Positions 11,658 to 31,523 of a DNA stretch of 64,000 nucleotides are shown one piece after another. A model generated the notes under the pieces. The model was given only the letters and a program-made list of their open reading frames with translations. It was not told where the DNA came from and did no database searches. The position numbers and the translations under genes were made by a program. Numbering within the stretch: position 1 is the first letter of the stretch; every line of letters starts with the position of its first letter. The stretch spans positions 35,560 through 99,559 of the forward strand of contig CAYLWN010000001.1 of NCBI GenBank assembly GCA_964387625.1, read 5' to 3'. Origin of the DNA: an uncultured Gammaproteobacteria bacterium. Its GTDB lineage: Bacteria > Patescibacteriota > Microgenomatia > UBA10105.

Positions 11658-12892
11658 ATGATTCTTGGTTTAGGAACTGGAAGAATAAATTTACCCCATT
11701 TACGAAAATTTTTATGATTTTTCATTATTGATTCTGCAAAATTCCAAGCAAGAATAAATAAATAATCAGGTTTGTCTTTATATAATTTTTCCGACTTAAC
11801 TATAGGAATTCTGGTTCCCGGAGTATATAATCCCTGTTTATAAATACTATCTTCAATAATATACTCAATAATTTTATTATTTATTCCAAAATAATTTAAA
11901 AGTGTATTCCCTTTTGCGGGTGCTCCGTATCCGGCAATTCTTTTTCCTTTAGATATTAGCGTATTAAGAACATTTAGAAGAGTAATTTTGTTATTTTCTA
12001 TTCTTTTAGAAAAATTAAGATAAGTGTTTAAAGAATTTAATTTTAGTCTTTTTTCCTCTTTCAGTAATTTAATAACTGAGGATTGAACTTTATATTTACT
12101 TTCATTTAATGCAACAAAAACTCTTAAAGATCCTCCGTGTGAATTAACTCTTTCAGCTCGGAATATTTTCATGTTAAATCTATTAAATAAAATTTGTAAA
12201 GGTACAACAGATAAATACGATAAATGTTCATGATATACAGTGTCAAATAAATTGTTTTGTAAAAAATCAATCAAATAAGGAGCTTCAATTATAAACACAC
12301 CATTTTTGTTTAAAATAATTTTGACTCCGTTGATAATTTCATCTAAATCATGAATATGAGCAAAAACATTTGTTGCGCAGACAATATCAGCTGACCCATA
12401 TTTGTTAAATATTTTTTTTGCTAGTTTTATATTAAAAAATTCTGGTAAAGTTGTTATTTTTTGATCAATGGCTGTTTTGGCAACATTTTTTGCGGGTTCA
12501 ACGCCTAAAACACGCATATTTAGTTTTTTTAGCGGTTTAAGTAAAATTCCGTCATTGCTACCGATATCTATACATAATGAATTATTTTTTAGATGTAAAG
12601 TTTTAGTTACATGATCGGCAAAATCTTGAAAGTGTTTTATAAAAACAGAGGAAGTTGATGAATAGTAAACATAATCTTTAAATAATATTTTTGGAGATAC
12701 TACATATCGAAGCTGTAACAAATAACACTTTTGACAAAAACACACGATTAATGGGTAAAAAGTTTCTTTTTTATTAAGATTTTTCTCATTTATAAATGCA
12801 TTTGCTAGGGGAGTAGGTCCAAAATTAAACACGTCTTTTAAATTGTTGTTTTTGCATATTCTGCAAATTTCAATTTTAGTTATAGTTTTCAT
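11654..12892 (-). CDS. NDP-hexose C-methyltransferase family protein (TylCIII/TcaB9-like; Zn-ribbon + SAM MT + C-terminal domain)
   Basis: N-terminal CRIC...CQKC zinc ribbon, SAM motif I 'CIDIGSNDG', a conserved 'DTVYHEHLSY' block, and a C-terminal 'AGYGAPAKGNTLLNY...YTPGT.IPI' block. Paralog of 28702..29937. Confidence 0.6.
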   Translation of the reverse strand: MKTITKIEICRICKNNNLKDVFNFGPTPLANAFINEKNLNKKETFYPLIVCFCQKCYLLQLRYVVSPKILFKDYVYYSSTSSVFIKHFQDFADHVTKTLHLKNNSLCIDIGSNDGILLKPLKKLNMRVLGVEPAKNVAKTAIDQKITTLPEFFNIKLAKKIFNKYGSADIVCATNVFAHIHDLDEIINGVKIILNKNGVFIIEAPYLIDFLQNNLFDTVYHEHLSYLSVVPLQILFNRFNMKIFRAERVNSHGGSLRVFVALNESKYKVQSSVIKLLKEEKRLKLNSLNTYLNFSKRIENNKITLLNVLNTLISKGKRIAGYGAPAKGNTLLNYFGINNKIIEYIIEDSIYKQGLYTPGTRIPIVKSEKLYKDKPDYLFILAWNFAESIMKNHKNFRKWGKFILPVPKPRII

Positions 12893-12940: not shown

Positions 12941-14008
12941 ATGAATAATCCAACAATCAATCAAGATTTAATAGAAATAAGTAAATCTCTTAAAGATGAA
13001 GTAAAAAAACTTAAAAATAAAACGATTTTGATTTCAGGAGGATCAGGTTTTATCGGTAATTATATTGTTAGATTCATTTTATATTTAAACAAAAAATACC
13101 CAAACTTTAAATGCAGAGTTATTTCTATAGACAATTATATAACCGGATCTAAGAATAATTTAAATAAATTTTCCAATAACGGTTTAAAGTTAATTGAACA
13201 TGATATAAGAAATCCTTTAAAAATAAGCGAGCCTATTGATTATATTATTCATGCCGCAGGCGTAGCCTCACCAATTTATTATAAAAAATTCCCAATAGAA
13301 ACAATTGAAACAACGATATACGGAGCAAAAAATCTTCTTGAGTTAGCCAGAATAAAAAAAATAAAAGGGTTTTTATTTTTTAGTTCAAGTGAAATATATG
13401 GTGATCCGGATCCTTCATCAATACCTACGCCGGAAACATATCGGGGAAACGTGTCTTGCACGGGTTCCAGGGCTTGTTATGACGAGTCCAAGCGATTAGG
13501 GGAAACCCTTTGTTTAGCATATCACGAAGTGCATAAAATTCCGATTAAAATTGTCAGACCATTTAATGTATTTGGTCCAGGTATGAAATTAAATGATTAT
13601 CGCGTCATTCCTATGTTCTTTAGTAGAGCGTTAACAAATAAGCATTTACCCGTACATGATAATGGAAATCAAACTCGAACTTTTTGTTATATCACTGACG
13701 CAATAATTGCTATATATAAAGTATTACTAATGGGTAAAAATGGCGAAATATACAACATTGGAAATGATACTAATGAAATAAATATGATGAGTTTAGCTAA
13801 TATTGTTTCTCAATTATTTAAGAAAAAGCCTGAAGTTCGATCGGTGCCTTATCCTTATAAATATCCATCTGATGAGCCTCGAAGAAGATTACCTGATTTA
13901 ACTAAAATAAAAACATTACTGAATTATCAACCTAGTGTTGATTTAATAACAGGTTTAAAACGAACTAAAAAATGGTATAAGGAAATGAATTTAGCTAAAC
14001 TATTTTAA
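12941..14008 (+). CDS. UDP-glucuronate decarboxylase (UDP-xylose synthase, UXS/ArnA-C-like SDR)
   Basis: GGSGFIGN Rossmann motif. The block 'SSSEIYGDP....PE.Y.G.V...G.RACYDESKRLGETLC.AY' closely parallels the UXS 'RACYDEGKRVAETMCYAY' active-site region. An 'FNVFGPGM' block is also present. Confidence 0.65.
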   Translation: MNNPTINQDLIEISKSLKDEVKKLKNKTILISGGSGFIGNYIVRFILYLNKKYPNFKCRVISIDNYITGSKNNLNKFSNNGLKLIEHDIRNPLKISEPIDYIIHAAGVASPIYYKKFPIETIETTIYGAKNLLELARIKKIKGFLFFSSSEIYGDPDPSSIPTPETYRGNVSCTGSRACYDESKRLGETLCLAYHEVHKIPIKIVRPFNVFGPGMKLNDYRVIPMFFSRALTNKHLPVHDNGNQTRTFCYITDAIIAIYKVLLMGKNGEIYNIGNDTNEINMMSLANIVSQLFKKKPEVRSVPYPYKYPSDEPRRRLPDLTKIKTLLNYQPSVDLITGLKRTKKWYKEMNLAKLF

Positions 14009-14169: not shown

Positions 14170-15822
14170 TTATTTTACTTGAATAATGTCAATAATAGGT
14201 CCTAGTCTTTCAATTCTTACGGTCTCTAGCGTATTTGCTGAACCATGAATTAAATTAACAATATTATTGGTATCGTTTGATTTCATGGGAGAAAATCTTT
14301 TTATTAATATATATTTTTGTTTATCTAGTTTATTTATAAGAGATGAATTATAGGACCAGTAATAGTTAAATATATATTTAATATCATTGTTATAGACATA
14401 TTTATTTATATCGTTCACATTATTAACATCAATAACTTTTTCAAAATAAATAATATTTCGTAAATTATCAGAAGATATTGAAGAGTTTATTAGACTTTTT
14501 AATTTTTGATATGAACCTGGTTTATTTTTTTGTATTAAGTTAATTGCTTCCATATTTGGTACGAATGGACTAAAACGAATGGATGTTGAGGCTACTTTAA
14601 TATCTTTAGAAATATTCTGGTTAATCCAAGAAGATGCTTGTATAAACGTAGGAGTTTGTAAATATCTAGATAGCCAAAAACACGAGGGTAAAATGGCTAA
14701 GATTATTATTATTGAGTAAATTATTTTTACTAAAATACCTGATCTATTGATTAAATTCAATCGATATATAAAATACCCAGTGAATATTGGGAAGATAATT
14801 AATACTGGCAACATGTACCTTAAAGATTGGTAAAAAGTTATCGAAATAAATAAAAAATATACAATTGAATAAAAAGCTATAGAAATTAATAATTTTGGTA
14901 AGTATTTAAAAAACCAAATTATACATAAAAAGGTTAGCAATATAACAGGTTCAGTAAATAAAAATTCTTTTAGGTAAAAAATAATATATTTAAAAAATCC
15001 ATCTTGGAAATTACCAAAAAGAATATTTGTAAATTCAGTAGACGCGTATTTATAACTCATTAATCTTGTAAAAAGTATGAATGACAATATAGGCAATAAA
15101 ATGATTAATAAATATTCAAAATAATTATGACCCAATTTTCTAATTCTCCAAAATCTAAAAAACCAGATGATAAATATTAATCCTAAACCATAAACTGCTG
15201 AAAAATGAAAACCGATAGCAAAAGATAAGAAGAAAACAGCAATTAAAGCATCAAAAATTCTATACTTATTTATTTGATATTTGATAAGCCAATAAATAGC
15301 TAGAGAATAGAAAAACAATGACAACATCCATGGTTTTGCCGTATGAGACATTTGAATTTGAGTAATTGAAAATGTAGAAAAAAATAATACCCATAAATAA
15401 ATATTATTTTGTTTAGGAAAAATCAATTGAGTTATTTTAAAAATTACATATACTGTACATGTACCGAATAATGCAGATATAATTCTAGGAATAAACATAA
15501 AATAACCTTCATGTGTCACCAAAAACAACATAAATTGTTCGATAGTGGATACTTGATGTAATATCAGCTTATAAATATAGGCTAAAATAAAAAATGGCAG
15601 CATTATATGGGATCCAAGCGGCGGATATTGCGAACTAGTTACTAGGCTTTTATTAGCTAACATTTGCCATGCAGCAAGGTAATTTGGTACTTCATCCGGA
15701 ATTACATATAATACAGGAGAACCAAAATTTGGATTAACGACACGGATTACAAATCCCACTAATAATATGATTGGAACAAAATATTTTTTTAAATTTGAAA
15801 GTTTTATTATGTTTGTTGGCAT
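14170..15822 (-). CDS. GT-C fold glycosyltransferase (ArnT/PMT-like), polytopic membrane protein
   Basis: 550 aa, 12 or more TM helices. The first loop carries 'VIPDEVPNYLAAW', a DE motif like PMT/ArnT. C-terminal soluble domain. Confidence 0.5.
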   Translation of the reverse strand: MPTNIIKLSNLKKYFVPIILLVGFVIRVVNPNFGSPVLYVIPDEVPNYLAAWQMLANKSLVTSSQYPPLGSHIMLPFFILAYIYKLILHQVSTIEQFMLFLVTHEGYFMFIPRIISALFGTCTVYVIFKITQLIFPKQNNIYLWVLFFSTFSITQIQMSHTAKPWMLSLFFYSLAIYWLIKYQINKYRIFDALIAVFFLSFAIGFHFSAVYGLGLIFIIWFFRFWRIRKLGHNYFEYLLIILLPILSFILFTRLMSYKYASTEFTNILFGNFQDGFFKYIIFYLKEFLFTEPVILLTFLCIIWFFKYLPKLLISIAFYSIVYFLFISITFYQSLRYMLPVLIIFPIFTGYFIYRLNLINRSGILVKIIYSIIIILAILPSCFWLSRYLQTPTFIQASSWINQNISKDIKVASTSIRFSPFVPNMEAINLIQKNKPGSYQKLKSLINSSISSDNLRNIIYFEKVIDVNNVNDINKYVYNNDIKYIFNYYWSYNSSLINKLDKQKYILIKRFSPMKSNDTNNIVNLIHGSANTLETVRIERLGPIIDIIQVK

Positions 15823-15885: not shown

Positions 15886-17049
15886 ATGAAAAATTTATTA
15901 AAGCCTATTAGCTATAACAAACAATCAATTGATACTCTAGACATTAAATCTGTTATTAAGGTTTTAAAATCCGATTTTTTGACACAAGGACCTTTGATTG
16001 AAAAATTTGAAAACGAACTGACAAAATATTGCAAAGTAAAATATGCAGTAGTTTTCTCTTCAGGTACTTCAGCTTTGCATGGAGCATGTTATGCAGCGGG
16101 AATCAAAAAAGGGGATGAAGTGATAACAACTCCTATGACATTTGCTGCTTCAGTAAATTGTGTGATGTATTGTGGTGGTATACCTGTATTTGCTGATATT
16201 AAGCCAGAAATTCCATTAATTGATCCAAACGAAATATTAAAAAAAATTACTAAAAAAACTAAAGCCATAATTCCGGTTGATTATTCAGGAATGCCAGCAG
16301 ACTATGATGAAATTAGTGAAATTGCCAAAAAACATAATTTGATAGTTATTGCTGATGCGTGTCATTCATTAGGAGCTACATATAAAGGAAGCAAGGCTGG
16401 TTCGTTAGCTGACATGTCTATTTTTAGTTTTCATCCGGTAAAATCTATAACTACAGGAGAAGGAGGAGCTGTATTAACAAATAATTATAAATTTTATCAG
16501 AGACTAATATTGTTTCGGACGCATGGCATTACCAAAGATCCTAAACTATTTATTAACAAAAACGAAGGTCCTTGGTATTATGAAATGCAGGATTTAGGCT
16601 TTAATTACCGATTAACGGATATTCAAGCAGCGCTAGGCTTATCTCAATTAGTCAAATTATCTAAATTTATCAAGGTACGTCAAAAAATTGCTGGTTTTTA
16701 TCAACGACAACTAAAAAACATTAGCAATATAAAATTTTTAACAGTTCCCAAAAATAGAACGTCATCTTGGCATTTATTTCCAATACAAATTAGAAACATT
16801 TCATTTTTTCAAAAAACACTATTGGTAAAAATGCTGCATAAAGCCAATATCAAAGTACAAGTTCATTACATACCAGTTCATTTGCAACCGTATTATACAA
16901 AGAAGTTTGGATATAAAAAAGGAGATTTTCCAATTTCTGAAAAATTCTATCAAGAGGAAATTTCAATACCGATTTATCCAAATCTTACAAAAAATGAACT
17001 TAATTATGTACTAATGAATTTACTACTAAATAGTAATAAAATGAATTAG
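15886..17049 (+). CDS. pseC: DegT/PseC-like PLP-dependent UDP-4-keto-6-deoxy-sugar aminotransferase
   Basis: The N-terminus 'QSIDTLDIKSVIKVLKSDFLTQGP' matches the PseC signature. Also 'FSFHPVKSITTGEGG', with the PLP lysine, and 'GFNYRLTDIQAALG'. Confidence 0.65.
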   Translation: MKNLLKPISYNKQSIDTLDIKSVIKVLKSDFLTQGPLIEKFENELTKYCKVKYAVVFSSGTSALHGACYAAGIKKGDEVITTPMTFAASVNCVMYCGGIPVFADIKPEIPLIDPNEILKKITKKTKAIIPVDYSGMPADYDEISEIAKKHNLIVIADACHSLGATYKGSKAGSLADMSIFSFHPVKSITTGEGGAVLTNNYKFYQRLILFRTHGITKDPKLFINKNEGPWYYEMQDLGFNYRLTDIQAALGLSQLVKLSKFIKVRQKIAGFYQRQLKNISNIKFLTVPKNRTSSWHLFPIQIRNISFFQKTLLVKMLHKANIKVQVHYIPVHLQPYYTKKFGYKKGDFPISEKFYQEEISIPIYPNLTKNELNYVLMNLLLNSNKMN

Positions 17050-17473
17050 ATCTGAAGATCGAAAAATTGTTCTTTTGAAATATTTTTAAAGAAATTATAT
17101 TGTTTTTCTTTATTTTTGCTTTTATTGGTATTTTTCTAGTTTTAACCAGCTTTAGGGTTTTTTGAAGAAAGTAGCTTCCATAACCCTGATTTAAAAAACG
17201 TTTATCAATTCCTATAGATAAATAATAAATGTTTCTCGCTAAGTTGTATCTACAATATCCAATAATTATATTTTCTGAATATTTTAAATTGACTTCAAGT
17301 AAAAATATGTAATTATTAGAATTGTCTAAGAATTTTTTATACCACTTTATGTGTTGAGAGAATTGAATTAACTCCGTATTGATAGATTTATTTCTTACGT
17401 GTTTTTGATTTCTGATTAACAATAAACTCTTTGCGTCAGAAAGTTTTGCTTTTCTAATAGACAAATTATTCAT
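17000..17473 (-). CDS. GNAT family N-acetyltransferase (PseH-like candidate)
   Basis: The 'NQGYGSYFLQKTLK' acetyl-CoA motif A is present. I set the start at the first ATG (17473), which forms an ATGA overlap with the stop of the upstream synthase gene. The track start at 17491 is TTG. The 3' end overlaps convergent pseC by 50 nt. Confidence 0.5.
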   Translation of the reverse strand: MNNLSIRKAKLSDAKSLLLIRNQKHVRNKSINTELIQFSQHIKWYKKFLDNSNNYIFLLEVNLKYSENIIIGYCRYNLARNIYYLSIGIDKRFLNQGYGSYFLQKTLKLVKTRKIPIKAKIKKNNIISLKIFQKNNFSIFRSNSFYYYLVVNSLVHN

Positions 17474-18525
17474 TCTTGAATCATTTTCCAACTTAAAGGT
17501 GACCCTTTTTCAATATTTTGTTTTGCAGCTTTTCCAATAATCTGATCTAGATATACAGGCGATATTCCATATCCTGGTCTAATGCACTTAATATTTTTAT
17601 AAGTAATACGTTCTCCTTTTTTTATATCTTTTACAGCAAACAACGAACGTTTAAAAATGATATTTTCAGATTCTTGTTTATCAGGTTTATATGTAATTTT
17701 TCCCATAGCTTTTTCTACATCACGAATAGTTATTACCAATTGTTTCATTTCCTTAGGTTCGAGAGAAAAAGTTGAATCATATCCATCATCTTTTCTGGAT
17801 AAAGTAATATGTTTTTCAATTATTTTTGCTCCCATTGCAACAGCAGTGATTGAAGCAGTTAATCCTAAACTATGATCAGATAATCCGGTAATTACTTTAA
17901 ATTTATGTTGAATATCTTGCATAGTTCTTATGTTCATTTGATTTAAAGTGGCAGGATATGAGCTGATACAATGTAATACTGCAATATTTTTTGATCCTGC
18001 AGTTTTAAGCGTTTTAATGGCTAATTTAATATCTTCAAGCGACGCTAATCCTCTAGAAATAATTACCGGTTTTTTAGTTTTGCCAATACGTTTTAATAGT
18101 TCTAAATCTATATTTTCAAATGACGCAATTTTATATAATGAAACATTCATTTTTTCTAAAAAATCTACCGCAGAATTATCAAATGGGGTAGAAAAACAAA
18201 TCAAACCTTTTTTTTCTGCATAAGATTTTAGCTTGGGTTGCCATTCCCAAGGTGTGTATGTTTTTTGATATAAAGTATAAAGGGTAGTACCTTTCCATTT
18301 TCCGGAAGTTATTTTAAACCATTTTTTATTGCTGTTTATTGTTAATGTTTTGGGAGTATATGTTTGTAATTTTATTGCGTCAACACCAGATTTTGCTGCC
18401 TCATCTACAATTTTATAAGCTTGATCGATATCTTGATTGTGGTTTCCTGACATTTCAGCAACTATAAAACACGGTGAGTTTTCACCAATTGTTTTTTTTC
18501 CGATTTTGAAGTTAATATTATTCAT
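17470..18525 (-). CDS. NeuB/PseI/LegI-family nonulosonic acid synthase (TIM barrel + C-terminal SAF domain)
   Basis: 'GENSPCFIVAEMSGNHNQDIDQAYKIVDEAAKSGVDAIKLQTYT' is the canonical N-terminus of sialic/pseudaminic acid synthases. The C-terminal 'RPGYGISP' block is an SAF domain. Confidence 0.75.
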   Translation of the reverse strand: MNNINFKIGKKTIGENSPCFIVAEMSGNHNQDIDQAYKIVDEAAKSGVDAIKLQTYTPKTLTINSNKKWFKITSGKWKGTTLYTLYQKTYTPWEWQPKLKSYAEKKGLICFSTPFDNSAVDFLEKMNVSLYKIASFENIDLELLKRIGKTKKPVIISRGLASLEDIKLAIKTLKTAGSKNIAVLHCISSYPATLNQMNIRTMQDIQHKFKVITGLSDHSLGLTASITAVAMGAKIIEKHITLSRKDDGYDSTFSLEPKEMKQLVITIRDVEKAMGKITYKPDKQESENIIFKRSLFAVKDIKKGERITYKNIKCIRPGYGISPVYLDQIIGKAAKQNIEKGSPLSWKMIQE

Positions 18526-19657
18526 TCTGTTTTTCCCAGATATTATCTTTTAACCAGTTTCCTTTTTTATCTTTATTCCATACTAAAGAGTTTCTGAATG
18601 AATTTGCAATTTTCCAAAAATCTTTTTCGCTCATGTTGACATATTTAAGCCAATAATTTAAATCCTTAGGTATTATATGGTCATATTTTTTTACCATTTC
18701 TATGCCTTGTTTGCGAGTCATATATCCCATTTTAATATCTTTTGAAGCATGATCAGATGCTCTACCATATCCGAATTTTATATATTTTAAATAGTCATGA
18801 AGACCGTTTTCATAACGGTCATCCAGATTGGAAAAATTTCTATAGGTTCTGTCAAACGGTTTTTTTCTTGGTTTCCAACCGTATTTTTTTTGTATAAGTT
18901 TTGCATGCTGATTAGGATCCCATTTAAAAAAGTTTCCTATATAAAGACCTTTCACTCCTACTTTTAGAATTTCCTCATCAGCCGGATATTTTGCCCATAA
19001 AAGATCTTTTTCAGTAAGTTTTTCTTGAGAATCTGTAATTAAGTCATACCATTCAAAGCCTCTTAAGGAATGCTCATGCCTGCTTCTGTTGCTAAATTCA
19101 ACAAAATCTTCAGGTTCATACATACCTGAAATATCCCAGGCAATTTCTCCCCAAATAATCAATGGAATATTAAATTTGACTGCAATTTGAATTGGATAAG
19201 TTGAGATACCGCAGTGCGCATGCCAATTCATATCTCCCATTTTTCTAAAACATAGGCGGTTTAATTTTTTTAATACTTCCACACTGGGACCAAATACGAG
19301 ATGATCTGCATCAAATTTGTGACGCATTTGATCGCGGTTATAATCACCTTCAGGTAAATAATTATTACCGTGATATGTAACCAAAAGAGGTTTTAATCCA
19401 TATTCTTTAACAATTGTGTGTGTTTGAAAATAACTATCTTTACCGCCACTAACAGGAATTACACAATCATAATTTGACTTATTATTTTTTGTTGTTTGCG
19501 TTATGATCTGTAAAAACTTTTTTTTCCTTATTTTCCAAAACTCGTTTGTTAATTTCTTAAATTTTTCAAATGTCCGACAACTTGAACATACGCCATTTTC
19601 ATCGATATATAAATTGACAGCAACTTCAGGATAGACACATTTTTTACAATATCGCAT
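18518..19657 (-). CDS. N-acetyl sugar amidotransferase (PP-loop ATPase; PseA/WbuX family)
   Basis: N-terminal Cys-rich ribbon (CKKCVYPE...CSSC) and a PP-loop 'SGGKDS' motif. About 380 aa, as in WbuX/PseA. A GGAGG Shine-Dalgarno lies 4 nt upstream of the ATG. Confidence 0.65.
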   Translation of the reverse strand: MRYCKKCVYPEVAVNLYIDENGVCSSCRTFEKFKKLTNEFWKIRKKKFLQIITQTTKNNKSNYDCVIPVSGGKDSYFQTHTIVKEYGLKPLLVTYHGNNYLPEGDYNRDQMRHKFDADHLVFGPSVEVLKKLNRLCFRKMGDMNWHAHCGISTYPIQIAVKFNIPLIIWGEIAWDISGMYEPEDFVEFSNRSRHEHSLRGFEWYDLITDSQEKLTEKDLLWAKYPADEEILKVGVKGLYIGNFFKWDPNQHAKLIQKKYGWKPRKKPFDRTYRNFSNLDDRYENGLHDYLKYIKFGYGRASDHASKDIKMGYMTRKQGIEMVKKYDHIIPKDLNYWLKYVNMSEKDFWKIANSFRNSLVWNKDKKGNWLKDNIWEKQNE

Positions 19658-19734: not shown

Positions 19735-20550
19735 CTATTTTTTATCTATTAAAATCAAATCTGGTGATCTAACATTAAAACCATTTTCAAATAAATACTT
19801 TTTTGCCAAATAAACACTTTGATCAGTATATTGGAAAATATTTGCGGCTGCTATTGCATCAACTTTTGTTTTTGTCAAGGCTTCAGCGAAGTGACTCCAC
19901 TCACCAACTCCGCCACAAGCTATAATCGGGATTTTAACGCAATCTGCGACTTCTTTAATTAAGTGTATGTCATAACCATTTTTGACACCGTCTCTATCTA
20001 CAGAATTTAATAGTATTTCTCCGGCGCCAAAATTTTCGACAGTTTTTGCCCAATCAACAGGATTATAGCATGTTGGTTTAAGACCGTATTCAGACATAAC
20101 GATGTATTTATTATTAATTTTTTTTACATCGATTGAAACTACTATGCATTGTGATCCGAATTCATGTGCAGATTCGGATATAAATTTAGGTTTTTTCAAA
20201 GCTATCGTATTGATAGAAATTTTATCTGCCCCCTTCTTAAGTCTGATTTCAATATCGTTTAAATTTTTTATTCCACCTCCGACCGTAATTGGCATCAAGG
20301 CAACCTTAGAGACGTCATTTATAATATCTAAGAAATTATTTCTATTGGGGTTGTGAATATCATTACGTCGTAGGTCATAATTTTTATTTCTAGATATATC
20401 TAAATATATTAACTCGTCAGCAGCCCATTCACTCAATCGTTTGACTGAAGTTACAGGGTTGCCTAAATTTTGGAAACGTTTAAATTGCTTACTTTGAACC
20501 AACCAACCGTTCTTTAATAGAAGTACAGGTACCAAGCGCTTTTTCTTCAT
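19735..20550 (-). CDS. HisF-like cyclase subunit (WbuZ family) of the sugar amidotransferase system
   Basis: The N-terminus 'RLVPVLLLKNGWLVQSKQFKRF...GNPV' matches the HisF (beta/alpha)8 N-terminus. 'ADELIYLDI' and 'GGGI' blocks are also present. Confidence 0.65.
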   Translation of the reverse strand: MKKKRLVPVLLLKNGWLVQSKQFKRFQNLGNPVTSVKRLSEWAADELIYLDISRNKNYDLRRNDIHNPNRNNFLDIINDVSKVALMPITVGGGIKNLNDIEIRLKKGADKISINTIALKKPKFISESAHEFGSQCIVVSIDVKKINNKYIVMSEYGLKPTCYNPVDWAKTVENFGAGEILLNSVDRDGVKNGYDIHLIKEVADCVKIPIIACGGVGEWSHFAEALTKTKVDAIAAANIFQYTDQSVYLAKKYLFENGFNVRSPDLILIDKK

Positions 20551-21161
20551 AAATTTAGGAAATTATATAAAAGCATTTGTCCGGCTTTTTGGCTTTTTTC
20601 TGGATGGAATTGAACACCGTAAATATTATCCATATTAATAATAGCTGCGAAATTATTTCCATAGTTTGTTTGAGCAATCAAATTTTTTTTATTTTTTGGT
20701 TGAAATACAAAACTATGGACAAAATAAAAATCAAGAGTCTTAAATTGTTTAGTTAATGGTGAGGTTTGTATGACTTCTATATTATTCCAACCGATATGAG
20801 GTAATGGAAGGAATCCTGAATCCAATTTTTTTACTTCTCCCGGAATCCACCCTAGTCCAGTAGTGATTTCAAATTCATATCCTTTATTGGCTAGTACCTG
20901 CATTCCAACGCAAATACCTAAAAAAGGTTTTTTATCTGTAAAAACAGCTTTTTCTAAATGAGTCATAGGGATTAACTGATGGATCTTTCGCATTGCCGCT
21001 GCATATGCGCCAACGCCAGGTAAAATCAAATGAGTAGCATTTTCAATATCACGGGTTTGGTTTGAAATAGTAACATTAGGGTTTAATGTTGTTGCTAAAT
21101 TAAATACAGATTTTACATTACCTGATCCATAGTCCAGAATGCAAATACTAATTTTTTTCAT
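20547..21161 (-). CDS. HisH-like glutamine amidotransferase subunit (WbuY family)
   Basis: 'ISICILDYGSGNVKSV', 'LILPGVGAY', 'PFLGICVGMQVL' with the catalytic Cys, and 'HSF'/'QFHPEKS' with the catalytic His. This is the class I GATase triad. Confidence 0.7.
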   Translation of the reverse strand: MKKISICILDYGSGNVKSVFNLATTLNPNVTISNQTRDIENATHLILPGVGAYAAAMRKIHQLIPMTHLEKAVFTDKKPFLGICVGMQVLANKGYEFEITTGLGWIPGEVKKLDSGFLPLPHIGWNNIEVIQTSPLTKQFKTLDFYFVHSFVFQPKNKKNLIAQTNYGNNFAAIINMDNIYGVQFHPEKSQKAGQMLLYNFLNL

Positions 21162-21293
21162 AACAGCTATTTTTATACAGTCTTAGGTATAGGTAATTAT
21201 AAATTTTGGTTTATAAATTCTGAAGTTTTTAAAAACCAATAATTATATTAATAGTATTATCTACGGTGTTAATAATTTATATAAAAACATATT

Positions 21294-22301
21294 TTATCCC
21301 TTTTTTATTCCAGATGCAGAGTAATATTCTCGGGTTTGCATAGCTTGTTCAAGTAATTTACCTGGTGTATAAAACCTATCACCTAAAATTACACGATCCA
21401 ATATCGGCTTATTATTTTTATCTACTAATTTATTTATTATAAGAGAGCCTTCATTACAAGCGACAAATAAGGAATTTGAATTAATTCGGTATATGATACC
21501 AGTTTGAAAAGGATGAAATTTACCGTCAGTTGTAATACAATAACAATCTTTAATCCTGACTAATTTTCCGTTTAAAAATGTCATAGCACCAGGATAAGGA
21601 TCATCAAAGGCGCAAATGAAACTTTCAATATCAAAAAGTGTCCAACTCCAGTCGATGTATGCGTGTTTATTGGTTGCTAGTCTTGGCCAGTAACTGCTGA
21701 AATATTCAGTTTGTGAAATATGTTTAAATTCGTTATTTTTCTCTATTTTTTTAATAAATGACCCAATAAATTTTAGGTATTGATTCGTAGAAAATTTTTG
21801 AAAATCTAAAGAAATACGACAAAAGGCAGGAAATACATATTCTTCGTAATATACGATATCTCCGGTATCTACTCCGTCGTCAATTAAATGAATTAGGTTA
21901 AATCCTTGCCGGTCTTTCCGTAATATTCTCCAGGAGAATCCACCGCCACCTCTGTCCTGAGGAAGTTTACTACCATGTAGATTAATTAATCTAGAATTAA
22001 ATTTTCTAATAAAACTTGATTTAAAAATCCAAGCAGCTCCTATTGAAATACCTAAAGTAGTTGGAGTGATAATTTCATCAATAATTTTATTATTTAAATT
22101 GGATAATGAAATGTAAGGAATTTTATTCTTATTTAATAATGTGGCTAAAGTAATTCCTATATCAGGAAGGATTTCATTAACGTGTCGTGGGCTGGTGACA
22201 ACAGTAATTTTTTTTTCTTGTTTAGTTAGGGTAATTGCCAATTCACCCAATAATTTTCCGCCGCCAAGAAGTAAATAATGGTCAATTTTTCCAAATCGCA
22301 T
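21294..22301 (-). CDS. formyltransferase-fold protein (Fmt/PurN/ArnA-N-like; putative sugar N-formyl/acyl transferase)
   Basis: 'INLHGSKLPQDRGGG' corresponds to the N-x-H...SLLP..RG catalytic loop. 'LIHLIDDGVDTGDIV' corresponds to the H..D.G.DTG.I motif. There is an Fmt-like C-terminal domain. Confidence 0.5.
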   Translation of the reverse strand: MRFGKIDHYLLLGGGKLLGELAITLTKQEKKITVVTSPRHVNEILPDIGITLATLLNKNKIPYISLSNLNNKIIDEIITPTTLGISIGAAWIFKSSFIRKFNSRLINLHGSKLPQDRGGGGFSWRILRKDRQGFNLIHLIDDGVDTGDIVYYEEYVFPAFCRISLDFQKFSTNQYLKFIGSFIKKIEKNNEFKHISQTEYFSSYWPRLATNKHAYIDWSWTLFDIESFICAFDDPYPGAMTFLNGKLVRIKDCYCITTDGKFHPFQTGIIYRINSNSLFVACNEGSLIINKLVDKNNKPILDRVILGDRFYTPGKLLEQAMQTREYYSASGIKKG

Positions 22302-22584
22302 AATTCAACTTTCCCGAACAGAAATTTGTCTGCCTTTAAGATAGGATTTAATCCGTACTATATCATAGTCTTTTAAAAAAAACATTTTTAATAACATTTT
22401 TTACAGTTGTTTTTCTAGCCTTTTTTATAATCTAATTTTGTTTTGTTTCCCAATTTCAGAAGATATTAAGTACTCCAATAATCAAAATAAATAGATTCCT
22501 GGTTATTAAATAAAATACAACATTAACAACGAAGTTGTTGATTAATAAAATTAATTTAGAATTTTTAACGGCGTAAACAATTAA

Positions 22585-25774: not shown

Positions 25775-26764
25775 ATGTTTAACTGGTCAAAACAAGTAAT
25801 TCTATTAACAGGAGGTACTGGTTCGTTTGGACAAGCATTCACTAAAACTGTATTAAAACTACATCCACCAAAAAGTTTACGGATTTATAGTCGGGATGAA
25901 TATAAACAATTCGAAATGGAAAAAATAATTTCTCATCCGCATGTAAGATATTTAATTGGTGATGTAAGAGATAAAGATAGATTACAAAGAGCTATGGATG
26001 GCGTAACCCTTGTTATTCATGCAGCCGCGATGAAACAAATAGAGGCTTGTGAATACAATCCCACTGAAGCAATTAAAACCAATATAAACGGAAGTATGAA
26101 TGTAATAGAAACCGCTTTAAATGCAAATGTGGAAAAAGTAATGGGCATAATTACAGATAAAGCTGTATCTCCTGTTAATTTATATGGAGCTACTAAATTG
26201 TGTATGGAAAAACTTATGATACAAGGAAATGTTTATACAGGTAAAAATAAAACTACTATCAGTTGTGTTAGATATGGAAACGTTGCGGGAAGCAGAGGGA
26301 GCGTAATTCCGGTTTTCATAAAACAAAAAGAAAACGGAAAATTCACCGTAACTCATAAAGACATGACTAGGTTTTGGATTACTTTAGAAGAAGCAGTGGC
26401 ATTTGTTATATCATCTATTGAAAAAATGAAAGGTGGGGAAGTATTTATTCCCAAAATGCCAAGTTTTAAAATTATAGATTTAGTTAAAGCAATAGATTCT
26501 AAAGTAAAAATACAATATATAGGAGTTAGATCCGGAGAAAAAATTCATGAGGATTTGGTATCGCAACACGAATCAAGAAATATTGCAGAGTTTAAAAATT
26601 ATTATATTCTATCACCTGATTTTGAATTTTGGAATGATAATAAAAAAACAAATAATAATGGAAATAATAAGGTTATTGTTAATTTTTCCTATAATAGTGG
26701 TAATAATAAATTTTTTCTTACAGTTAAGCAACTAGAAAAACAAATAAGTAATCTTCTTGTATGA
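25775..26764 (+). CDS. pseB: UDP-GlcNAc inverting 4,6-dehydratase PseB (FlaA1 family)
   Basis: Near-collinear match to the remembered PseB/FlaA1 sequence: 'ILLTGGTGSFGQAF...YSRDEYKQFEME...RYLIGDVRDKDRL..AM.GV..VIHAAAMKQIEACEYNPTEAIKTNINGS.NVIE.AL...VEKV..I.TDKA.SPVNLYGATKLC.EKL....N.....KT..S.VRYGNV.GSRGSVIP.F...K......T...MTRFWITL'. Confidence 0.8.
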   Translation: MFNWSKQVILLTGGTGSFGQAFTKTVLKLHPPKSLRIYSRDEYKQFEMEKIISHPHVRYLIGDVRDKDRLQRAMDGVTLVIHAAAMKQIEACEYNPTEAIKTNINGSMNVIETALNANVEKVMGIITDKAVSPVNLYGATKLCMEKLMIQGNVYTGKNKTTISCVRYGNVAGSRGSVIPVFIKQKENGKFTVTHKDMTRFWITLEEAVAFVISSIEKMKGGEVFIPKMPSFKIIDLVKAIDSKVKIQYIGVRSGEKIHEDLVSQHESRNIAEFKNYYILSPDFEFWNDNKKTNNNGNNKVIVNFSYNSGNNKFFLTVKQLEKQISNLLV

Positions 26765-28647
26765 ATACAACGGTAATACTCACCTCTTCTGATTCAGAAG
26801 TTAAATTTGCAATTTCATACCAAAAATCAAATGCTGATAAAAAAGTAATTATTTTAACACCAACTTTAACAGGACAAAAACTATTACGTAATTTAGGATT
26901 AAATTATTTTGATTATTTTAAATATGGTCACGTGAGCCATTCAGATTATTATCAAAAATATTTTTGGAATTTTGAAATTAAAGTAACTTATTTGGTACAA
27001 AAAGTTTTAAAAAATCTTGTAGCAAGATTTCCAGATTTTAAAAAATGGATTTTACCAAATCAGGATTGGTTAGAATTAGTTTATTTAGAAGTATTGGATA
27101 CTTATCAATACTGGCTTTCAATTAATAAATTATTACCCGGATCCCATTATTTGAAATTTTATTATCATAATAAAATACGTACTGACATATATTATCCCTA
27201 TCAAAGTCAAATGCAAATATTATCAATGTTCGTTCCCAAACATAGAATAACTATTATTGATAAACATAATTTTTTAGAAAAAATTATTAAAATATTTATA
27301 AATCTCTACATTTATATTCAGATTATTCCCAACTTATTGATTAATGTTAATACAATAATACACCGATTAATTACTAATTATTTAACTGATAAAAAATTAT
27401 ATAAAACAGATATTTTGATATATTCTGCAGGTAGAAATCTTCTTTATTATGAAAGTTTAATCAAATTACTAAATAAAGAAAAAATATACAAAGGAATTCA
27501 AATTCTTACTGGTTTTCAAACTATCGAAGATGAAGTTGTATTGAATAATACAGGTTTTAAATATATTTCTGCAAATAATGTTATTCCTAACGAATTTAAC
27601 AAGAAAAAGGATAATCTTAAAAAGAAGTTAATAAGTCGCCTTAAGAATATATATACCAGCTATGATTACTCAACCTGTTTAAGTGGTTTTCCAAAATTAG
27701 TTGAAGAAATTTTAATATCAAAGACAAAAGAAGTATTAATTACAAATATTTCAAAAATTATTTCTCAAACAGATATAGCTGAATATTCAATCAAGATGAT
27801 AAAACCACGACTATTGATTACAACTCACGATCCAGGTCCTACTGCATTGCCATTTGTGTTAGCGGCAAAAAAAATGAAAATAAAATCATTATTATTAATG
27901 CATGGATGGCAAAATACACTTATTGGGAATAGATATTATAGTGATTATATTGTTGTTTGGGGAAAATATATAGCTAAATGGTATAAAAAAAGATTAAGGT
28001 ATAATCCAAAAAAAATATTAGCAATAGGATATCCTGCTTTAGATAAATATTTTAAAAATAAGCAGGCTTTTTGGAAAAAAAGACAAATTCTTCCTACGTT
28101 CAAACAAAAAACCAATTTGGGATTGTTATTAACAATGTATTTACCAAACACAGCATTATTATCAAAATTTCTTACTGAACTATTTTGTGAATTAAGAAAC
28201 AATCACAATTTTATTATTAACATCAGACTTCATCCAGGGCAACCCTCTGATGGATTTAAAACACTGGCAAAAGAATTTGGTATAAACGCTAGATTTGGTC
28301 AATCTGTGACTCTTGATAATTTTATTAAAAATAATGATTTTTTGTTGGTTTGGGATACCACCGCAATTATTTGGTGTATGATTTATGGTAAACCATTGTT
28401 TTATTGTGCTCCCAATTGGGGTTTGGGTATAACGCCGATAAATAAATTTGGCGGAGCTTGGTTGGTTAATAGTCCTTCTGATTTATTGATTAAAATTGAA
28501 AATTATATAAAAAATCCAAAAATTATATATAAGTTACATAAAAAGCAAAAAATTTTTTTAAAAAATATAATGGGAATAATTGATGGATCTTCATCAAAAA
28601 GACATAAAAATTTAATTCTAAATTTACTAAAAAGATCTAAATATTAA
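26761..28647 (+). CDS. large hypothetical protein (628 aa), candidate GT-B-like glycosyltransferase; function unknown
   Basis: ATGA-coupled to pseB. No family recognised by eye. The C-terminal half contains 'IINIRLHPGQ', a possible HP motif like CMP-sugar-dependent GT-B enzymes and KpsC/KpsS-like transferases. Confidence 0.35.
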   Translation: MNTTVILTSSDSEVKFAISYQKSNADKKVIILTPTLTGQKLLRNLGLNYFDYFKYGHVSHSDYYQKYFWNFEIKVTYLVQKVLKNLVARFPDFKKWILPNQDWLELVYLEVLDTYQYWLSINKLLPGSHYLKFYYHNKIRTDIYYPYQSQMQILSMFVPKHRITIIDKHNFLEKIIKIFINLYIYIQIIPNLLINVNTIIHRLITNYLTDKKLYKTDILIYSAGRNLLYYESLIKLLNKEKIYKGIQILTGFQTIEDEVVLNNTGFKYISANNVIPNEFNKKKDNLKKKLISRLKNIYTSYDYSTCLSGFPKLVEEILISKTKEVLITNISKIISQTDIAEYSIKMIKPRLLITTHDPGPTALPFVLAAKKMKIKSLLLMHGWQNTLIGNRYYSDYIVVWGKYIAKWYKKRLRYNPKKILAIGYPALDKYFKNKQAFWKKRQILPTFKQKTNLGLLLTMYLPNTALLSKFLTELFCELRNNHNFIINIRLHPGQPSDGFKTLAKEFGINARFGQSVTLDNFIKNNDFLLVWDTTAIIWCMIYGKPLFYCAPNWGLGITPINKFGGAWLVNSPSDLLIKIENYIKNPKIIYKLHKKQKIFLKNIMGIIDGSSSKRHKNLILNLLKRSKY

Positions 28648-28701: not shown

Positions 28702-29937
28702 TTAAATAATCTTTATTTTGGGAACAGGAATGATGAATTTACCGCCATTTTTGCTGTATTTAACTTGTTTGTTTATAATTTCTTTTACAAAATTCCAGGC
28801 TAAAATTAACACATAATCTGGTTGACGGTTAATGATTTCTATTTCAGGATAAATAGGAATATGTGTGCCTGGAGTATAAAGACCTTGTTTATATGATGTT
28901 GAGTCTACTATGAAATCAATTAATTTATTATCAATTTTGCTGTAGTTTAATAATATGTTGCCCTTTGCTGCTGCGCCATATCCGGCAATTGTTTTTCCCT
29001 GTATTTTTAATTTTTTTAATGTTTTTTTTAGTAATTTACATAATTGTTTTACATTTTTTGCAAACTTAATATAAGTTTTTGCATCATACAAGCCAACTTT
29101 TATTTCTTGCTGAAACAGTTTATTTATTTGATTATTTATTTTATATACTGATGATTTTTTAGCTAAAAATATTCTTAAAGAACCTCCATCAATTGACGTG
29201 CGTTGAACATCAATAAGTTTAAGATTGGATCGTTTGATTAGATAAATTAATGGCTTAATTGAAAAGTATGATAGATGTTCATGGTAAATCGTATCGAATT
29301 GATTTTTCCGTATTAAGTCCAATAAATAAGGAAACTCACAGATAAAAACTCCATTATCTGATAATAATTGTTCCACAGAAAGCAATAAGTCTGGTAAATC
29401 ACTGATATGTGCTACCACATTGGTAGCTGTAATAATATCTGCTGAACCATATTTGGATTTAATTTTTTTGGACAACTTAATAGATATGTAATCGTTAATT
29501 GTTTCAATACCTTTAAGAACTGCAATTTTAGCTAAATTTTCAGCCGGATCAATGCCAAGTGTACGGTATCCCAATCCCTTAAAATATGAAAGCATGCTGC
29601 CATCATTGCTTCCAATGTCAATTATCAGAGAATTTGATTTTAATTTAAATTTTTTTTGAGCTTGTAAAGCTATAGTTTCAAAATTGTTCATTCTGGTTTT
29701 TGAAGATGATGGAATATAAACATAATTTTTAAACATTTCCTCCGGATTTACTATTTCCGTAAGTTGTACTAGACCGCAAATATTACAATAACCAGCAGTG
29801 AGTGGATAGAATTTTTCTGATTTTTTTAACTGTTCTTTGGTTAAAAAGCCATTTGGTAAAGGAATTGAGCCAAAAGCAAAAAATTTGGTTATTTTTCTAC
29901 TATTACAAATACGACATTTCGTAATTTTTTTAATCAT
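28702..29937 (-). CDS. NDP-hexose C-methyltransferase family protein (second TylCIII/TcaB9-like paralog)
   Basis: Same architecture as 11654..12892: CRIC...CNIC Zn ribbon, 'IIDIGSNDG', 'DTIYHEHLSY', 'AGYGAAAKGNILLNY', 'YTPGTHIPI'. About 50% identity to the first copy by eye. Confidence 0.6.
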   Translation of the reverse strand: MIKKITKCRICNSRKITKFFAFGSIPLPNGFLTKEQLKKSEKFYPLTAGYCNICGLVQLTEIVNPEEMFKNYVYIPSSSKTRMNNFETIALQAQKKFKLKSNSLIIDIGSNDGSMLSYFKGLGYRTLGIDPAENLAKIAVLKGIETINDYISIKLSKKIKSKYGSADIITATNVVAHISDLPDLLLSVEQLLSDNGVFICEFPYLLDLIRKNQFDTIYHEHLSYFSIKPLIYLIKRSNLKLIDVQRTSIDGGSLRIFLAKKSSVYKINNQINKLFQQEIKVGLYDAKTYIKFAKNVKQLCKLLKKTLKKLKIQGKTIAGYGAAAKGNILLNYSKIDNKLIDFIVDSTSYKQGLYTPGTHIPIYPEIEIINRQPDYVLILAWNFVKEIINKQVKYSKNGGKFIIPVPKIKII

Positions 29938-29975: not shown

Positions 29976-31523
29976 TTACAAGATTGAATATATATATAAT
30001 GTTTCTGAATTAGGACCAGTCATTTGTCCGAATTCATCAAATATTTTAAATAATTTATAATTTTCTAATATTACATTCATTATTTCATTTCTTTCAAAAT
30101 CATTTTTTCCAAAATAATATTTTGATTTATTGATTAATATAATAAATTTAATTTGTTTGTTAGCTATTATATTTTTTAACATTTCATGACTAGTTAAATG
30201 CCATTTTTCAGATTGGTATGAATCGATAATTGATATTGATCCCGGTCCTTCATTCATAGTTAATGGTACATTGCGGTTTATTGCAGCGACAACAGGCATA
30301 TGCATGGTTAGAATTAAATCGTTAGAATTACTATTATCTTCCAAATATGAAGATATTTTATGTAAAACAGAATGTGGGGTAACTAGCATATTACTTAATG
30401 ATATTTTTATAAATTTATGATGGGGGAAGATTGCATATGAGGTAAATATAAGTAAAACTATAAATATTACAAAATATTGCTTCATTTTTTTATTAGTAAA
30501 TTGTTTAACCGTAAAAAAGCCAGCTAAGAAAGAGAGAAATGGAATAGAAGGATAGATGTAAGATGAATCTGCGGGATGATGAATAACTCCTGTAACAAAA
30601 TAAGAAAGACAAATAAAAATAATTAATAAAATATATCCGGATTTCTCATTTTTTAAAAATATTTTTTTAAAATTAAAAAATATTCCAGTAATTATTAATG
30701 CTAAATAAATTCCATAATCACGGGCAGTTAGTGTAATAAAGCTTGTCAATTGTCCTAAGGTTATTGAGTCATTGTCATAAACATATAATAATAATTTATT
30801 AGCAAAAAAAGGCCAAAAAATTCCATATAAAGTATTTTCCCAGCTCAGTAAAAAGTATGGAGTATATATCAAAACTCCAAAGATAATAATAGCAAATGAA
30901 ATAATAAATTTAAATTTTGCAGCATAGTTTCTATAAATAATTAAGTAAAGCCAAACTAGAATTAATACAATCAGTGCTTGGGATCTTACTAAAACTGCAA
31001 GAACTGAAAAAAAGCATGCAATAATATCAAACATAAACCTTCTTTTTTTAAATGACTTAGTTAGCATAAATAAAGAAATGCTTGTAAAAAAAGTCGCATG
31101 TTGTTCAGAAAATGGTACATTAGAAAAATAAATGTATAGAGGGCATCCTAGACCGAGTAATAATGCGGTTAAAATGATTAAATTACGATTTCCAAAGTTA
31201 CTACAGATCTTGAGTATAATTACGAAAACAGATAATGCAATAATTAATCCATAAAACCGCTGCTGTAGTATTGAAGGAGAAAGGAAGAATGACGGTATTT
31301 GATTCAATAAATCGGTCAATAAGCTGTTCCATCCATTATAATTAATAAAAGGTATTAGTCCGGATCGTGCCAATTTACTGTTATATAATAAAATACCATC
31401 TTCGTTTCCAATATATCCATAGTAAATAGTAATTAATCTGAGTAAAATTGACATTAAAACAATGGAAAAAAGTAATAAATTCTTTTTGAAAATATTAAAT
31501 ATACTTCTGATCTTTTTATGCAT
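29976..31523 (-). CDS. GT-C-like polytopic membrane protein (ArnT/PMT-like candidate)
   Basis: 515 aa with many TM helices. The first loop carries 'GYIGNEDGILLYN', an acidic ED motif. C-terminal soluble domain. Confidence 0.4.
   Translation of the reverse strand: MHKKIRSIFNIFKKNLLLFSIVLMSILLRLITIYYGYIGNEDGILLYNSKLARSGLIPFINYNGWNSLLTDLLNQIPSFFLSPSILQQRFYGLIIALSVFVIILKICSNFGNRNLIILTALLLGLGCPLYIYFSNVPFSEQHATFFTSISLFMLTKSFKKRRFMFDIIACFFSVLAVLVRSQALIVLILVWLYLIIYRNYAAKFKFIISFAIIIFGVLIYTPYFLLSWENTLYGIFWPFFANKLLLYVYDNDSITLGQLTSFITLTARDYGIYLALIITGIFFNFKKIFLKNEKSGYILLIIFICLSYFVTGVIHHPADSSYIYPSIPFLSFLAGFFTVKQFTNKKMKQYFVIFIVLLIFTSYAIFPHHKFIKISLSNMLVTPHSVLHKISSYLEDNSNSNDLILTMHMPVVAAINRNVPLTMNEGPGSISIIDSYQSEKWHLTSHEMLKNIIANKQIKFIILINKSKYYFGKNDFERNEIMNVILENYKLFKIFDEFGQMTGPNSETLYIYSIL

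Follow-up and report, generated by a model that had tools for sequence, protein, structure and literature searches.

A long two-domain formyltransferase subfamily in pseudaminic acid gene clusters and its predicted role in N-formylation of a nonulosonic acid

The formyltransferase gene and its product

The window analysed in this study is a stretch of 64,000 nucleotides (GC content 27.8%) from the assembly of an uncultured bacterium of the Patescibacteriota (GCA_964387625.1, contig CAYLWN010000001.1, positions 35,560 to 99,559). An open reading frame (ORF) running exactly from ATG to stop at window positions 21294..22301, on the minus strand, encodes a protein of 335 amino acids (aa). It lies within a gene cluster for pseudaminic acid (Pse), a nonulosonic acid, and its product is, judging by sequence, very probably the N10-formyltetrahydrofolate (N10-formyl-THF)-dependent sugar N-formyltransferase of this Pse pathway. 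The ATG is preceded by a ribosome-binding-like GGGAAAG. A preliminary description of the window had reported this ORF together with two catalytic-loop motifs, leaving the strand unstated; both motifs were recovered (NLHGSKLPQDRGGG, residues 107-120; HLIDDGVDTGDI, residues 138-149). Two other assembled contigs carry an identical protein with the same neighbours, and a search of genome contigs with the single protein returned two loci.

Long AT-rich spacers set the gene apart on both sides (21162-21293, 132 nt, GC 18%; 22302-22584, 283 nt, GC 23%), whereas its neighbours overlap or almost abut. Given these spacers, the gene may form its own transcription unit or represent a cassette insertion. 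A scan of both spacers for promoters and terminators yielded nothing above chance.

The Pfam model Formyl_trans_C (PF02911) matched residues 212-299 (50.0 bits, E 3.7e-13, cutoff 21.1), while Formyl_trans_N (PF00551) was recognised on the catalytic core alone (residues 92-153, 31.5 bits, cutoff 26.1); both matches are far above chance. The structure was predicted with AlphaFold (AF2) on an alignment of 40 diverse homologues with 44-55% identity to the query, among them members from Clostridia, Verrucomicrobia and Candidatus (Ca.) ainarchaeum, and reached a pLDDT of 91.5 and a pTM of 0.87. The best Foldseek matches of the model were the methionyl-tRNA formyltransferase Fmt (3tqq) and the N-terminal part of ArnA (ArnA-N, 2bln), which aligned over both domains (TM 0.70-0.79, 17-20% identity), followed by FdtF, WlaRD and FDH (E range 3e-21 to 1e-17, TM 0.6-0.79 overall). 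Pfam, the predicted structure and Foldseek thereby agree with the formyltransferase fold and Fmt-like C-terminal domain initially read from the letters.

The catalytic triad Asn107-His109-Asp145 was found intact and invariant in 40/40 homologues, as were L113 and P114 of an (S)xLP motif, an RG-x4-W segment and a DTG loop, and the motifs align with the catalytic motifs of Fmt and of PseJ, the formyltransferase of the Pse pathway. By its sequence the protein is a genuine formyl-THF transferase superfamily member whose catalytic machinery is intact, and conservation of the motifs makes N10-formyl-THF the predicted donor. Further invariant positions are family-specific (G120, S123, W124, Q197, Y204, P206, R207, W218, A231-F232-D233, F262-H263 and Q266), and a conserved C-terminal tail (GDRFYTP...R324...G331, with G307, R309, T312, R324 and G331) is without counterpart in Fmt.

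A single-sequence search of the PDB gave as best matches Fmt of C. burnetii (3tqq, 1.7e-12), WlaRD (1.5e-9) and PseJ (8e-9). A profile of the 40 homologues matched Fmt at 2e-18 and PseJ (6ci2, 6ci4) at 3.5e-15 in the same database; searched against 1.84 billion representatives, it retrieved 603 clusters at E <= 1e-30, corresponding to the subfamily, and 17,848 clusters at E <= 1e-3, corresponding to the superfamily. The protein belongs to an unnamed two-domain subfamily of its own, for which there is no curated model and which is neither Fmt nor PseJ; we refer to its members as long formyltransferases. Fmt-like genes on Sinorhizobium megaplasmids, retrieved by tblastn against plasmids, were rejected as members (26-28% identity, outside the subfamily).

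The pseudaminic acid cluster

The long formyltransferase gene is located between a class-III aminotransferase gene and the HisH/WbuZ/WbuX triad, all on the minus strand (Table 1), in agreement with the position originally given for it. The three triad genes are adjacent to each other, the oxidoreductase and cytidylyltransferase genes share an 11 nt overlap, and the genes for PseC and PseB are divergent (plus strand) from the minus-strand run. Since the cluster has no other cytidylyltransferase, the CTP_transf_3 protein is presumed to be the cytidine monophosphate (CMP)-nonulosonate synthetase; no PseF model was among its NCBIfam matches. The GNAT acetyltransferase is presumed to act as N-acetyltransferase on the other free amine. 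A protein of Candidatus Gottesmanbacteria bacterium GW2011_GWA1_34_13 matches the class-III aminotransferase with 100% identity, which places the window in a bacterium of the candidate phyla radiation (CPR). Between positions 15886 and 26764 the core Pse pathway is incompletely covered by recognisable genes, with PseG, PseF and an above-cutoff PseH missing.

Table 1 Genes of the Pse cluster and further features of the window
Feature	Position	Strand	Evidence or remark
PseC aminotransferase (DegT family)	15886..17049	+	TIGR03588 488.5 bits, cutoff 423.5
GNAT acetyltransferase, weakly PseH-like	17000..17491	-	TIGR03585 28 bits, cutoff 93
PseI pseudaminic acid synthase (NeuB family)	17470..18525	-	TIGR03586 461.5 bits, cutoff 340.25
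WbuX/PseA-type N-acetyl sugar amidotransferase (amidine synthase)	18518..19657	-	TIGR03573 336.6 bits, cutoff 203.2
WbuZ/HisF-like triad subunit	19735..20550	-	TIGR03572 (WbuZ) 269.7 bits, just below cutoff 299.7
HisH-type glutamine amidotransferase subunit of amidine-forming triad	20547..21161	-	TIGR01855 216.4 bits, cutoff 105.4
Long two-domain formyltransferase, 335 aa	21294..22301	-	Triad, Fmt/ArnA-type C-terminal domain, family-specific tail
Class-III (glutamate-1-semialdehyde (GSA)-aminomutase-like) pyridoxal phosphate-dependent aminotransferase, 436 aa	22585..23895	-	Pfam/NCBIfam
CTP_transf_3 cytidylyltransferase, 256 aa	23905..24675	-	Sole cytidylyltransferase of the cluster
GFO/IDH/MocA oxidoreductase (GFO), 325 aa	24665..25642	-	Pfam/NCBIfam; aldo-keto reductase (AKR) in its place in other loci
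PseB inverting UDP-GlcNAc 4,6-dehydratase	25775..26764	+	TIGR03589 451.9 bits, cutoff 407.75
628-aa ORF	26761-28647	+	No Pfam match
FdtA-like cupin	11274-11657
Sugar C-methyltransferase	11654-12892	-	Methyltransf_13 + Methyltransf_14
Epimerase/dehydratase	12941-14008
Large ORF	14170-15822		Resembles multi-pass membrane protein
Sugar C-methyltransferase	28702-29937	-	Methyltransf_13 + Methyltransf_14
Large ORF	29976-31523		Resembles multi-pass membrane protein
Large ORF	31534-33012		Resembles multi-pass membrane protein
Large ORF	35029-36447		Resembles multi-pass membrane protein
DegT-family aminotransferase	39801-40910
DegT-family aminotransferase	53408-54604

The ORF of 628 aa shares 4 nt with the end of pseB and its C-terminus weakly matches the NCBIfam model 'BFO_1060 family glycosyltransferase' (37.5 bits, cutoff 200), which makes its product a candidate nonulosonate transferase or a candidate stand-in for the missing PseG. 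The Pse cluster is flanked by two paralogous sugar C-methyltransferase genes, one of them adjoined by the cupin and epimerase/dehydratase genes. The annotated part of the window appears to be devoted mostly to glycan biosynthesis, and includes two further DegT-family aminotransferases. Two of the large membrane-protein-like ORFs were scanned and gave no Pfam match; likewise, the window yielded neither an Rfam match nor a tRNA gene.

Gene neighbourhood in related loci

Ninety-five related loci were collected (individual loci and proteins are cited below by L and P numbers) and their ORFs scored with phmmer; shares refer to the 32 non-redundant loci that had 8 kb or more of flanking sequence. 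Any Pse core gene was within reach in 88% of these and NeuB/PseI in 72%, in keeping with the nonulosonate module proposed in the preliminary description. A class-III aminotransferase was present in 78% (84% including a pair of DegT and short-chain dehydrogenase/reductase (SDR), as in L008 and L092), CTP_transf_3 in 69%, an oxidoreductase (GFO, AKR or SDR) in 66%, another N-acyltransferase in 66%, the WbuX/HisH/WbuZ triad in 44%, a second, different formyltransferase type in 34% and PIG-L genes in 19%. The commonest immediate neighbours of the long formyltransferase were AKR (16), class-III aminotransferase (11), WbuZ (9) and GFO (8). The amidotransferase triad is an optional neighbour, whereas the core partner across phyla is the set of oxidoreductase, cytidylyltransferase and class-III aminotransferase. 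The aminotransferase had been used merely as a landmark in the first account of the locus; its position was correct, but the enzyme is actually, along with oxidoreductase and cytidylyltransferase, the most conserved partner. It is 60-67% identical across phyla, and is better conserved and more abundant than the long formyltransferase.

In at least 16 loci CTP_transf_3 and class-III aminotransferase formed a single protein. These fusions (~680-710 aa, cytidylyltransferase N-terminal; L089 11098-13152, L090 1-854, L034 7803-9935, L001 12930-15056 and at least 12 further loci) are widespread and apparently undescribed.

Two contexts of the aminotransferase picked independently of the formyltransferase, by the length of their contigs alone (L094 and L095), both held a long formyltransferase, in the order PseB, PseC, AKR, CTP_transf_3, class-III aminotransferase, WbuX, HisH, HisF, GNAT, long formyltransferase, M28/DUF4910, GNAT and NeuB. 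AKR adjoins CTP_transf_3 in both of these loci and in L093 of Sulfurimonas autotrophica (CP002205, 1995-13382), a flagellin-glycosylation locus with the trio of AKR, CTP_transf_3 and class-III aminotransferase and without a long formyltransferase. The latter locus is compact, lies between fliD and a Maf/flagellin pair, and has the order PseB, PseC, ..., short formyltransferase-like, PIG-L, GNAT, NeuB, AKR, CTP_transf_3, class-III aminotransferase, Maf and flagellin. S. autotrophica is a cultured, tractable carrier of the trio.

Acyltransferases accompanying the long formyltransferase

A GNAT domain was fused to the C-terminus of the long formyltransferase in at least five proteins (P0255, P0314, P0345, P0359 and P0396; 525-546 aa), and the same GNAT subfamily (Acetyltransf_3) adjoins the long formyltransferase in at least 11 loci (for instance L044 11036-11623 and L086 5889-6449). 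This formyltransferase-associated GNAT resembles PseH weakly, with scores of up to 48.8 bits, and is the sole GNAT in the otherwise complete Pse sets of L053 and L091. The subfamily is absent from the window, of which the GNAT differs. No GNAT was seen in several loci (L026, L040 and L073). In minimal complete loci (the window, L009, L028, L031, L034 and L053) two aminotransferases (DegT and class III) are found with two acyltransferases (GNAT and long formyltransferase).

Some loci encode two or three different formyltransferases. L091 combines PseB, PseC, GNAT, PseG, NeuB, a short PseJ-like formyltransferase and a long one, and the short and long types also occur together in four further loci. 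The short protein of L091 is a PseJ-like single-domain protein of 194 aa (1348-1932), with 41% identity to the window protein over 76 aa of the core only. An ArnA/Fmt-like formyltransferase of 310 aa adjoins NeuB/PseG in two other loci (L006 14392-15324; L090 2894-3826; PRK06988 242 bits, fmt 189 bits).

An M28/DUF4910/DUF2172 aminopeptidase-like gene lies directly downstream of the long formyltransferase in L094 (15427-16719) and L095 (15458-16759); its product could be an amidohydrolase or a deformylase.

Discussion

The amine made by the class-III aminotransferase is our preferred acceptor for the long formyltransferase, although this assignment is a tentative one. PseB, PseC, GNAT and PseI would build a Pse-type nonulosonate, after which GFO (AKR elsewhere) would oxidise a free hydroxyl, likeliest C8-OH, on the nonulosonate or the CMP-nonulosonate. 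The class-III aminotransferase would convert the resulting ketone into a third amino group, and the long formyltransferase would cap this new amine with a formyl group from N10-formyl-THF, in parallel to the oxidation, transamination and formylation by the ArnA dehydrogenase, ArnB and the ArnA formyltransferase. In a final step, the WbuX/HisH/WbuZ triad would turn an N-acetyl into an acetimidoyl group. The first and last of these steps rest on equivalog-level matches, and we infer the three between them. The predicted product would be a CMP-activated 5,7,8-triamino sugar of Pse type with acetimidoyl, acetyl and formyl groups. This combination of N-acyl groups had been put forward in the preliminary description. 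Three different N-substituents on one residue require three nitrogens, the third of which the partner set can supply; the formyl product itself is predicted from homology.

Several observations from the literature are consistent with such chemistry. EpaA, a fusion of CTP_transf_3 and AKR, acts with the SDR EpaB to convert Pse5Ac7Ac into its 8-epimer, as verified by nuclear magnetic resonance (PMC12053666), and a cytidylyltransferase/oxidoreductase pair acting at Pse C8 is therefore established. The O-antigen of Tenacibaculum maritimum holds 5,7-diacylamido-8-amino-3,5,7,8,9-pentadeoxy-manno-nonulosonic acid (PMC3210612), and a paper on the genomics of this O-antigen assigns no genes to the 8-amino group. 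The same cassette, with an acetyltransferase replacing the formyltransferase, is found in the O-antigen locus of Legionella pneumophila serogroups 6 and 12 (Sg6/Sg12; PMC3694923). Structures have also been solved for GSA-like aminotransferases acting on sugar carbonyls, such as the GenB C-6' aminotransferases. Literature searches on GSA-like or semialdehyde enzymes with nonulosonates and on triamino nonulosonic acids found no paper characterising the cassette, a paper on Clostridium Pse does not mention its genes, and a tblastn search of a phage collection with the AKR and the cytidylyltransferase gave no EpaA-like match. More cautiously still, the oxidoreductase, the cytidylyltransferase~aminotransferase and the long formyltransferase could constitute a widespread route to 8-amino (5,7,8-triamino-3,5,7,8,9-pentadeoxy) nonulosonic acids.

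A number of points weigh against an aminotransferase-derived acceptor and the scheme built on it. C8 is most plausibly the site of the third amine, with analogy as the sole basis for this placement, and AKRs are mostly reductases rather than oxidases. A search of the window for a PseG homologue gave none, leaving the core Pse pathway incompletely accounted for. Of 42 loci flanked by 5 kb or more, 10 lacked a class-III aminotransferase within reach, the long formyltransferase stands beside the triad only in L044 and L054, and no DegT enzyme was found within 10 kb in L005 and L006, where the class-III enzyme could be the sole aminotransferase. In L094 and L095 three acyltransferases face two new amines, so that the accounting is inexact. 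Finally, in seven loci the long formyltransferase directly follows PseC, where a PseJ-like role fits.

That role constitutes the most serious alternative, namely that the long formyltransferase formylates the PseC-made C4 amine of UDP-4-amino-4,6-dideoxy-beta-L-AltNAc, leading to Pse5Ac7Fo and, through the triad, to Pse5Am7Fo; the oxidoreductase and class-III aminotransferase would then be unrelated, with GNAT acylating their product or an oxygen. PseJ has established this reaction for Pse5Ac7Fo (PMC11040635). Its structures match the family profile, and both the loci lacking any visible GNAT and the low PseH score of the window GNAT point in the same direction. On the other hand, about a third of the loci (the 34% given above) have a short PseJ-like or a second, ArnA-like formyltransferase alongside the long one. 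A PseH-like GNAT is present too and is sometimes fused to it, and a single polypeptide with two acyltransferases for one amine is implausible. The tightest neighbours, moreover, are the oxidoreductase and the class-III aminotransferase rather than PseC. The minimal complete loci, with two aminotransferases to two acyltransferases, and L091, with a short formyltransferase beside the long one, likewise speak against a mere substitution. That the long formyltransferase simply stands in for PseH or PseJ would be the first thought, but this accounts for the data less well than an aminotransferase-derived amine, and we regard it as possible though rather unlikely.

In the Arn pathway, ArnD later strips the formyl group. 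By the same logic as in ArnA/ArnB, formylation here could be transient, pulling an unfavourable transamination, with the formyl group later removed and replaced and the mature sugar formyl-free. The position of the long formyltransferase between GNAT and the M28/DUF4910 metallohydrolase-like gene in L094 and L095 would suit such a role, as would a 'putative aminopeptidase' in the Legionella Sg6/Sg12 locus. The window, however, has neither an M28/DUF4910 gene nor the formyltransferase-associated GNAT, and the M28/DUF4910-like protein is only a candidate deformylase, making transient formylation unlikely.

A PIG-L-type deacetylase could also first strip off the original N-acetyl group, with the long formyltransferase then acting on N5; the result would resemble the free-amine and formylated legionaminic-type sugars of Ca. 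Kuenenia. A preprint reports deacetylated and formylated CMP-nonulosonates along with a pair of deacetylase and formyltransferase genes (bioRxiv 10.64898/2026.04.20.719630). PIG-L genes do occur in some related loci, but their co-occurrence is far weaker than that of the aminotransferase, and no PIG-L homologue was found in the window; we consider this version improbable.

Less credible still, and rejected, is the suggestion, raised for another donor in the preliminary description, of an acyltransferase with a donor other than N10-formyl-THF, or of a hydrolase, on a formyltransferase scaffold. Divergence over the first 90 residues is too great for the Pfam model to match, and the family has invariant motifs and a tail unique to it; yet the N10-formyl-THF catalytic core, comprising the Asn-His-Asp triad, (S)xLP, RG-x4-W and the DTG loop, is fully invariant, and the structural neighbours are all 10-formyl-THF enzymes.

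The housekeeping Fmt of the organism, which the preliminary description had kept in view, was rejected with near certainty: Fmt does give the best single match in both PDB and NCBIfam, and automatic annotation by JGI labels homologues 'methionyl-tRNA formyltransferase', but the protein reached only 69.5 bits against the cutoff of 201.5 of the fmt equivalog TIGR00460 (34-71 bits for the GNAT-fused and L094 homologues), shares 18-20% identity with Fmt structures, has a glycan-cluster context kept in about 80% of loci, and has orthologues in archaea (a Micrarchaeota genome, L001, and Ca. ainarchaeum, P0029). Archaea initiate translation without formylmethionine, and the sub-cutoff score and archaeal orthologues are the grounds on which the protein is held not to be Fmt. 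A second formyltransferase-like ORF was not seen in the window.

Flagella, S-layers, capsules and lipopolysaccharides carry nonulosonic acids, pseudaminic and legionaminic acid among them, whose N-substituents decide recognition by antibodies, phages and lectins. In the literature covered, only PseJ (formyl) and PseA (amidine) were named as enzymes that give Pse N-groups other than acetyl; the present analysis defines a third such family, so far unnamed, with about 600 sequence clusters. The cassette is also present in the L. pneumophila Sg6/Sg12 O-antigen and Sulfurimonas flagellin-glycosylation loci. If a third amine is indeed installed and formylated by the window's enzymes and their relatives, genes would be assigned to an 8-amino nonulosonic acid so far known by structure alone, its distribution would become predictable from genomes, and the enzymes could be used to make new Pse derivatives chemoenzymatically. 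Triamino sugars resembling sialic acid, now a curiosity confined to a single fish pathogen, would in that case occur widely, over a range that takes in Patescibacteria, DPANN archaea, Campylobacterota and Legionella. Annotation gains as well, in that the recurrent JGI mislabel is corrected for the long formyltransferase family.

Comparison with known systems

Fmt is closest in overall fold and sequence (3tqq, E 1.7e-12, TM 0.72/0.79), with N- and C-terminal domains both present, and is set apart by the equivalog cutoff, the glycan-cluster context, the archaeal orthologues and the family-specific invariant residues. ArnA-N shares with the window protein the two-domain fold (TM 0.70-0.78), the triad and the logic of oxidoreductase, aminotransferase and formyltransferase. 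However, the two are just 17-18% identical, the window protein scores 52.9 bits with the ArnA model (NF005998), for which the cutoff is 777, it lacks the fused dehydrogenase and has the extra conserved tail, and its pathway leads to a nonulosonate instead of UDP-Ara4N. WlaRD, FdtF, QdtF and VioF are similar in the triad and the fold of the N-terminal domain (TM 0.57-0.62, query-normalised) and, like the acceptor proposed here, theirs are amino sugars made by aminotransferases; they differ in their C-terminal architectures, their dTDP-hexose substrates and an identity to the window protein of about 20%.

PseJ of Anoxybacillus (6ci2, 6ci4) belongs to the same superfamily and the Pse pathway, and its catalytic core aligns. 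It is a single-domain protein of about 190-220 aa (chains of 192 and 217) without an Fmt-type C-terminal domain, in contrast to the 335 aa with C-terminal domain and tail of the window protein, and the two resemble each other over only about 115 residues of the core. Since a PseJ-like short formyltransferase shares locus L091 with a long one, PseJ and the long formyltransferase are not one orthologous group; they are separate groups, which probably have different acceptors.

With EpaA/EpaB of an Acinetobacter baumannii prophage, likened here by domain content, the cassette has in common the coupling of CTP_transf_3 with an oxidoreductase within a Pse context (an AKR fusion in EpaA; AKR or GFO here). 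In place of the SDR EpaB stand a class-III aminotransferase, often fused to CTP_transf_3, and a formyltransferase, so that amination rather than epimerisation is predicted. The Legionella Sg6/Sg12 locus (Lp6_762-775) agrees in CapD/PseB, DegT, AKR, WbuX, HisH, HisF, a cytidylyltransferase, a 'GSA aminomutase', PseG, GNAT and NeuB, and differs in the acetyltransferase Lp6_766 at the position of the formyltransferase.

PseA has been described as an amidine synthase, and formyltransferases in nonulosonate clusters have been reported before, including PseJ (both PMC11040635), HrrPV6_1050 of Halorubrum, a gene of Ca. Kuenenia, fmt1-3 of Geobacillus and one in Alteromonas. The presence of a formyltransferase in such a cluster is not new in kind; what is new is the long two-domain subfamily, together with its fusion-supported tie to an uncharacterised cassette of cytidylyltransferase, aminotransferase and oxidoreductase.

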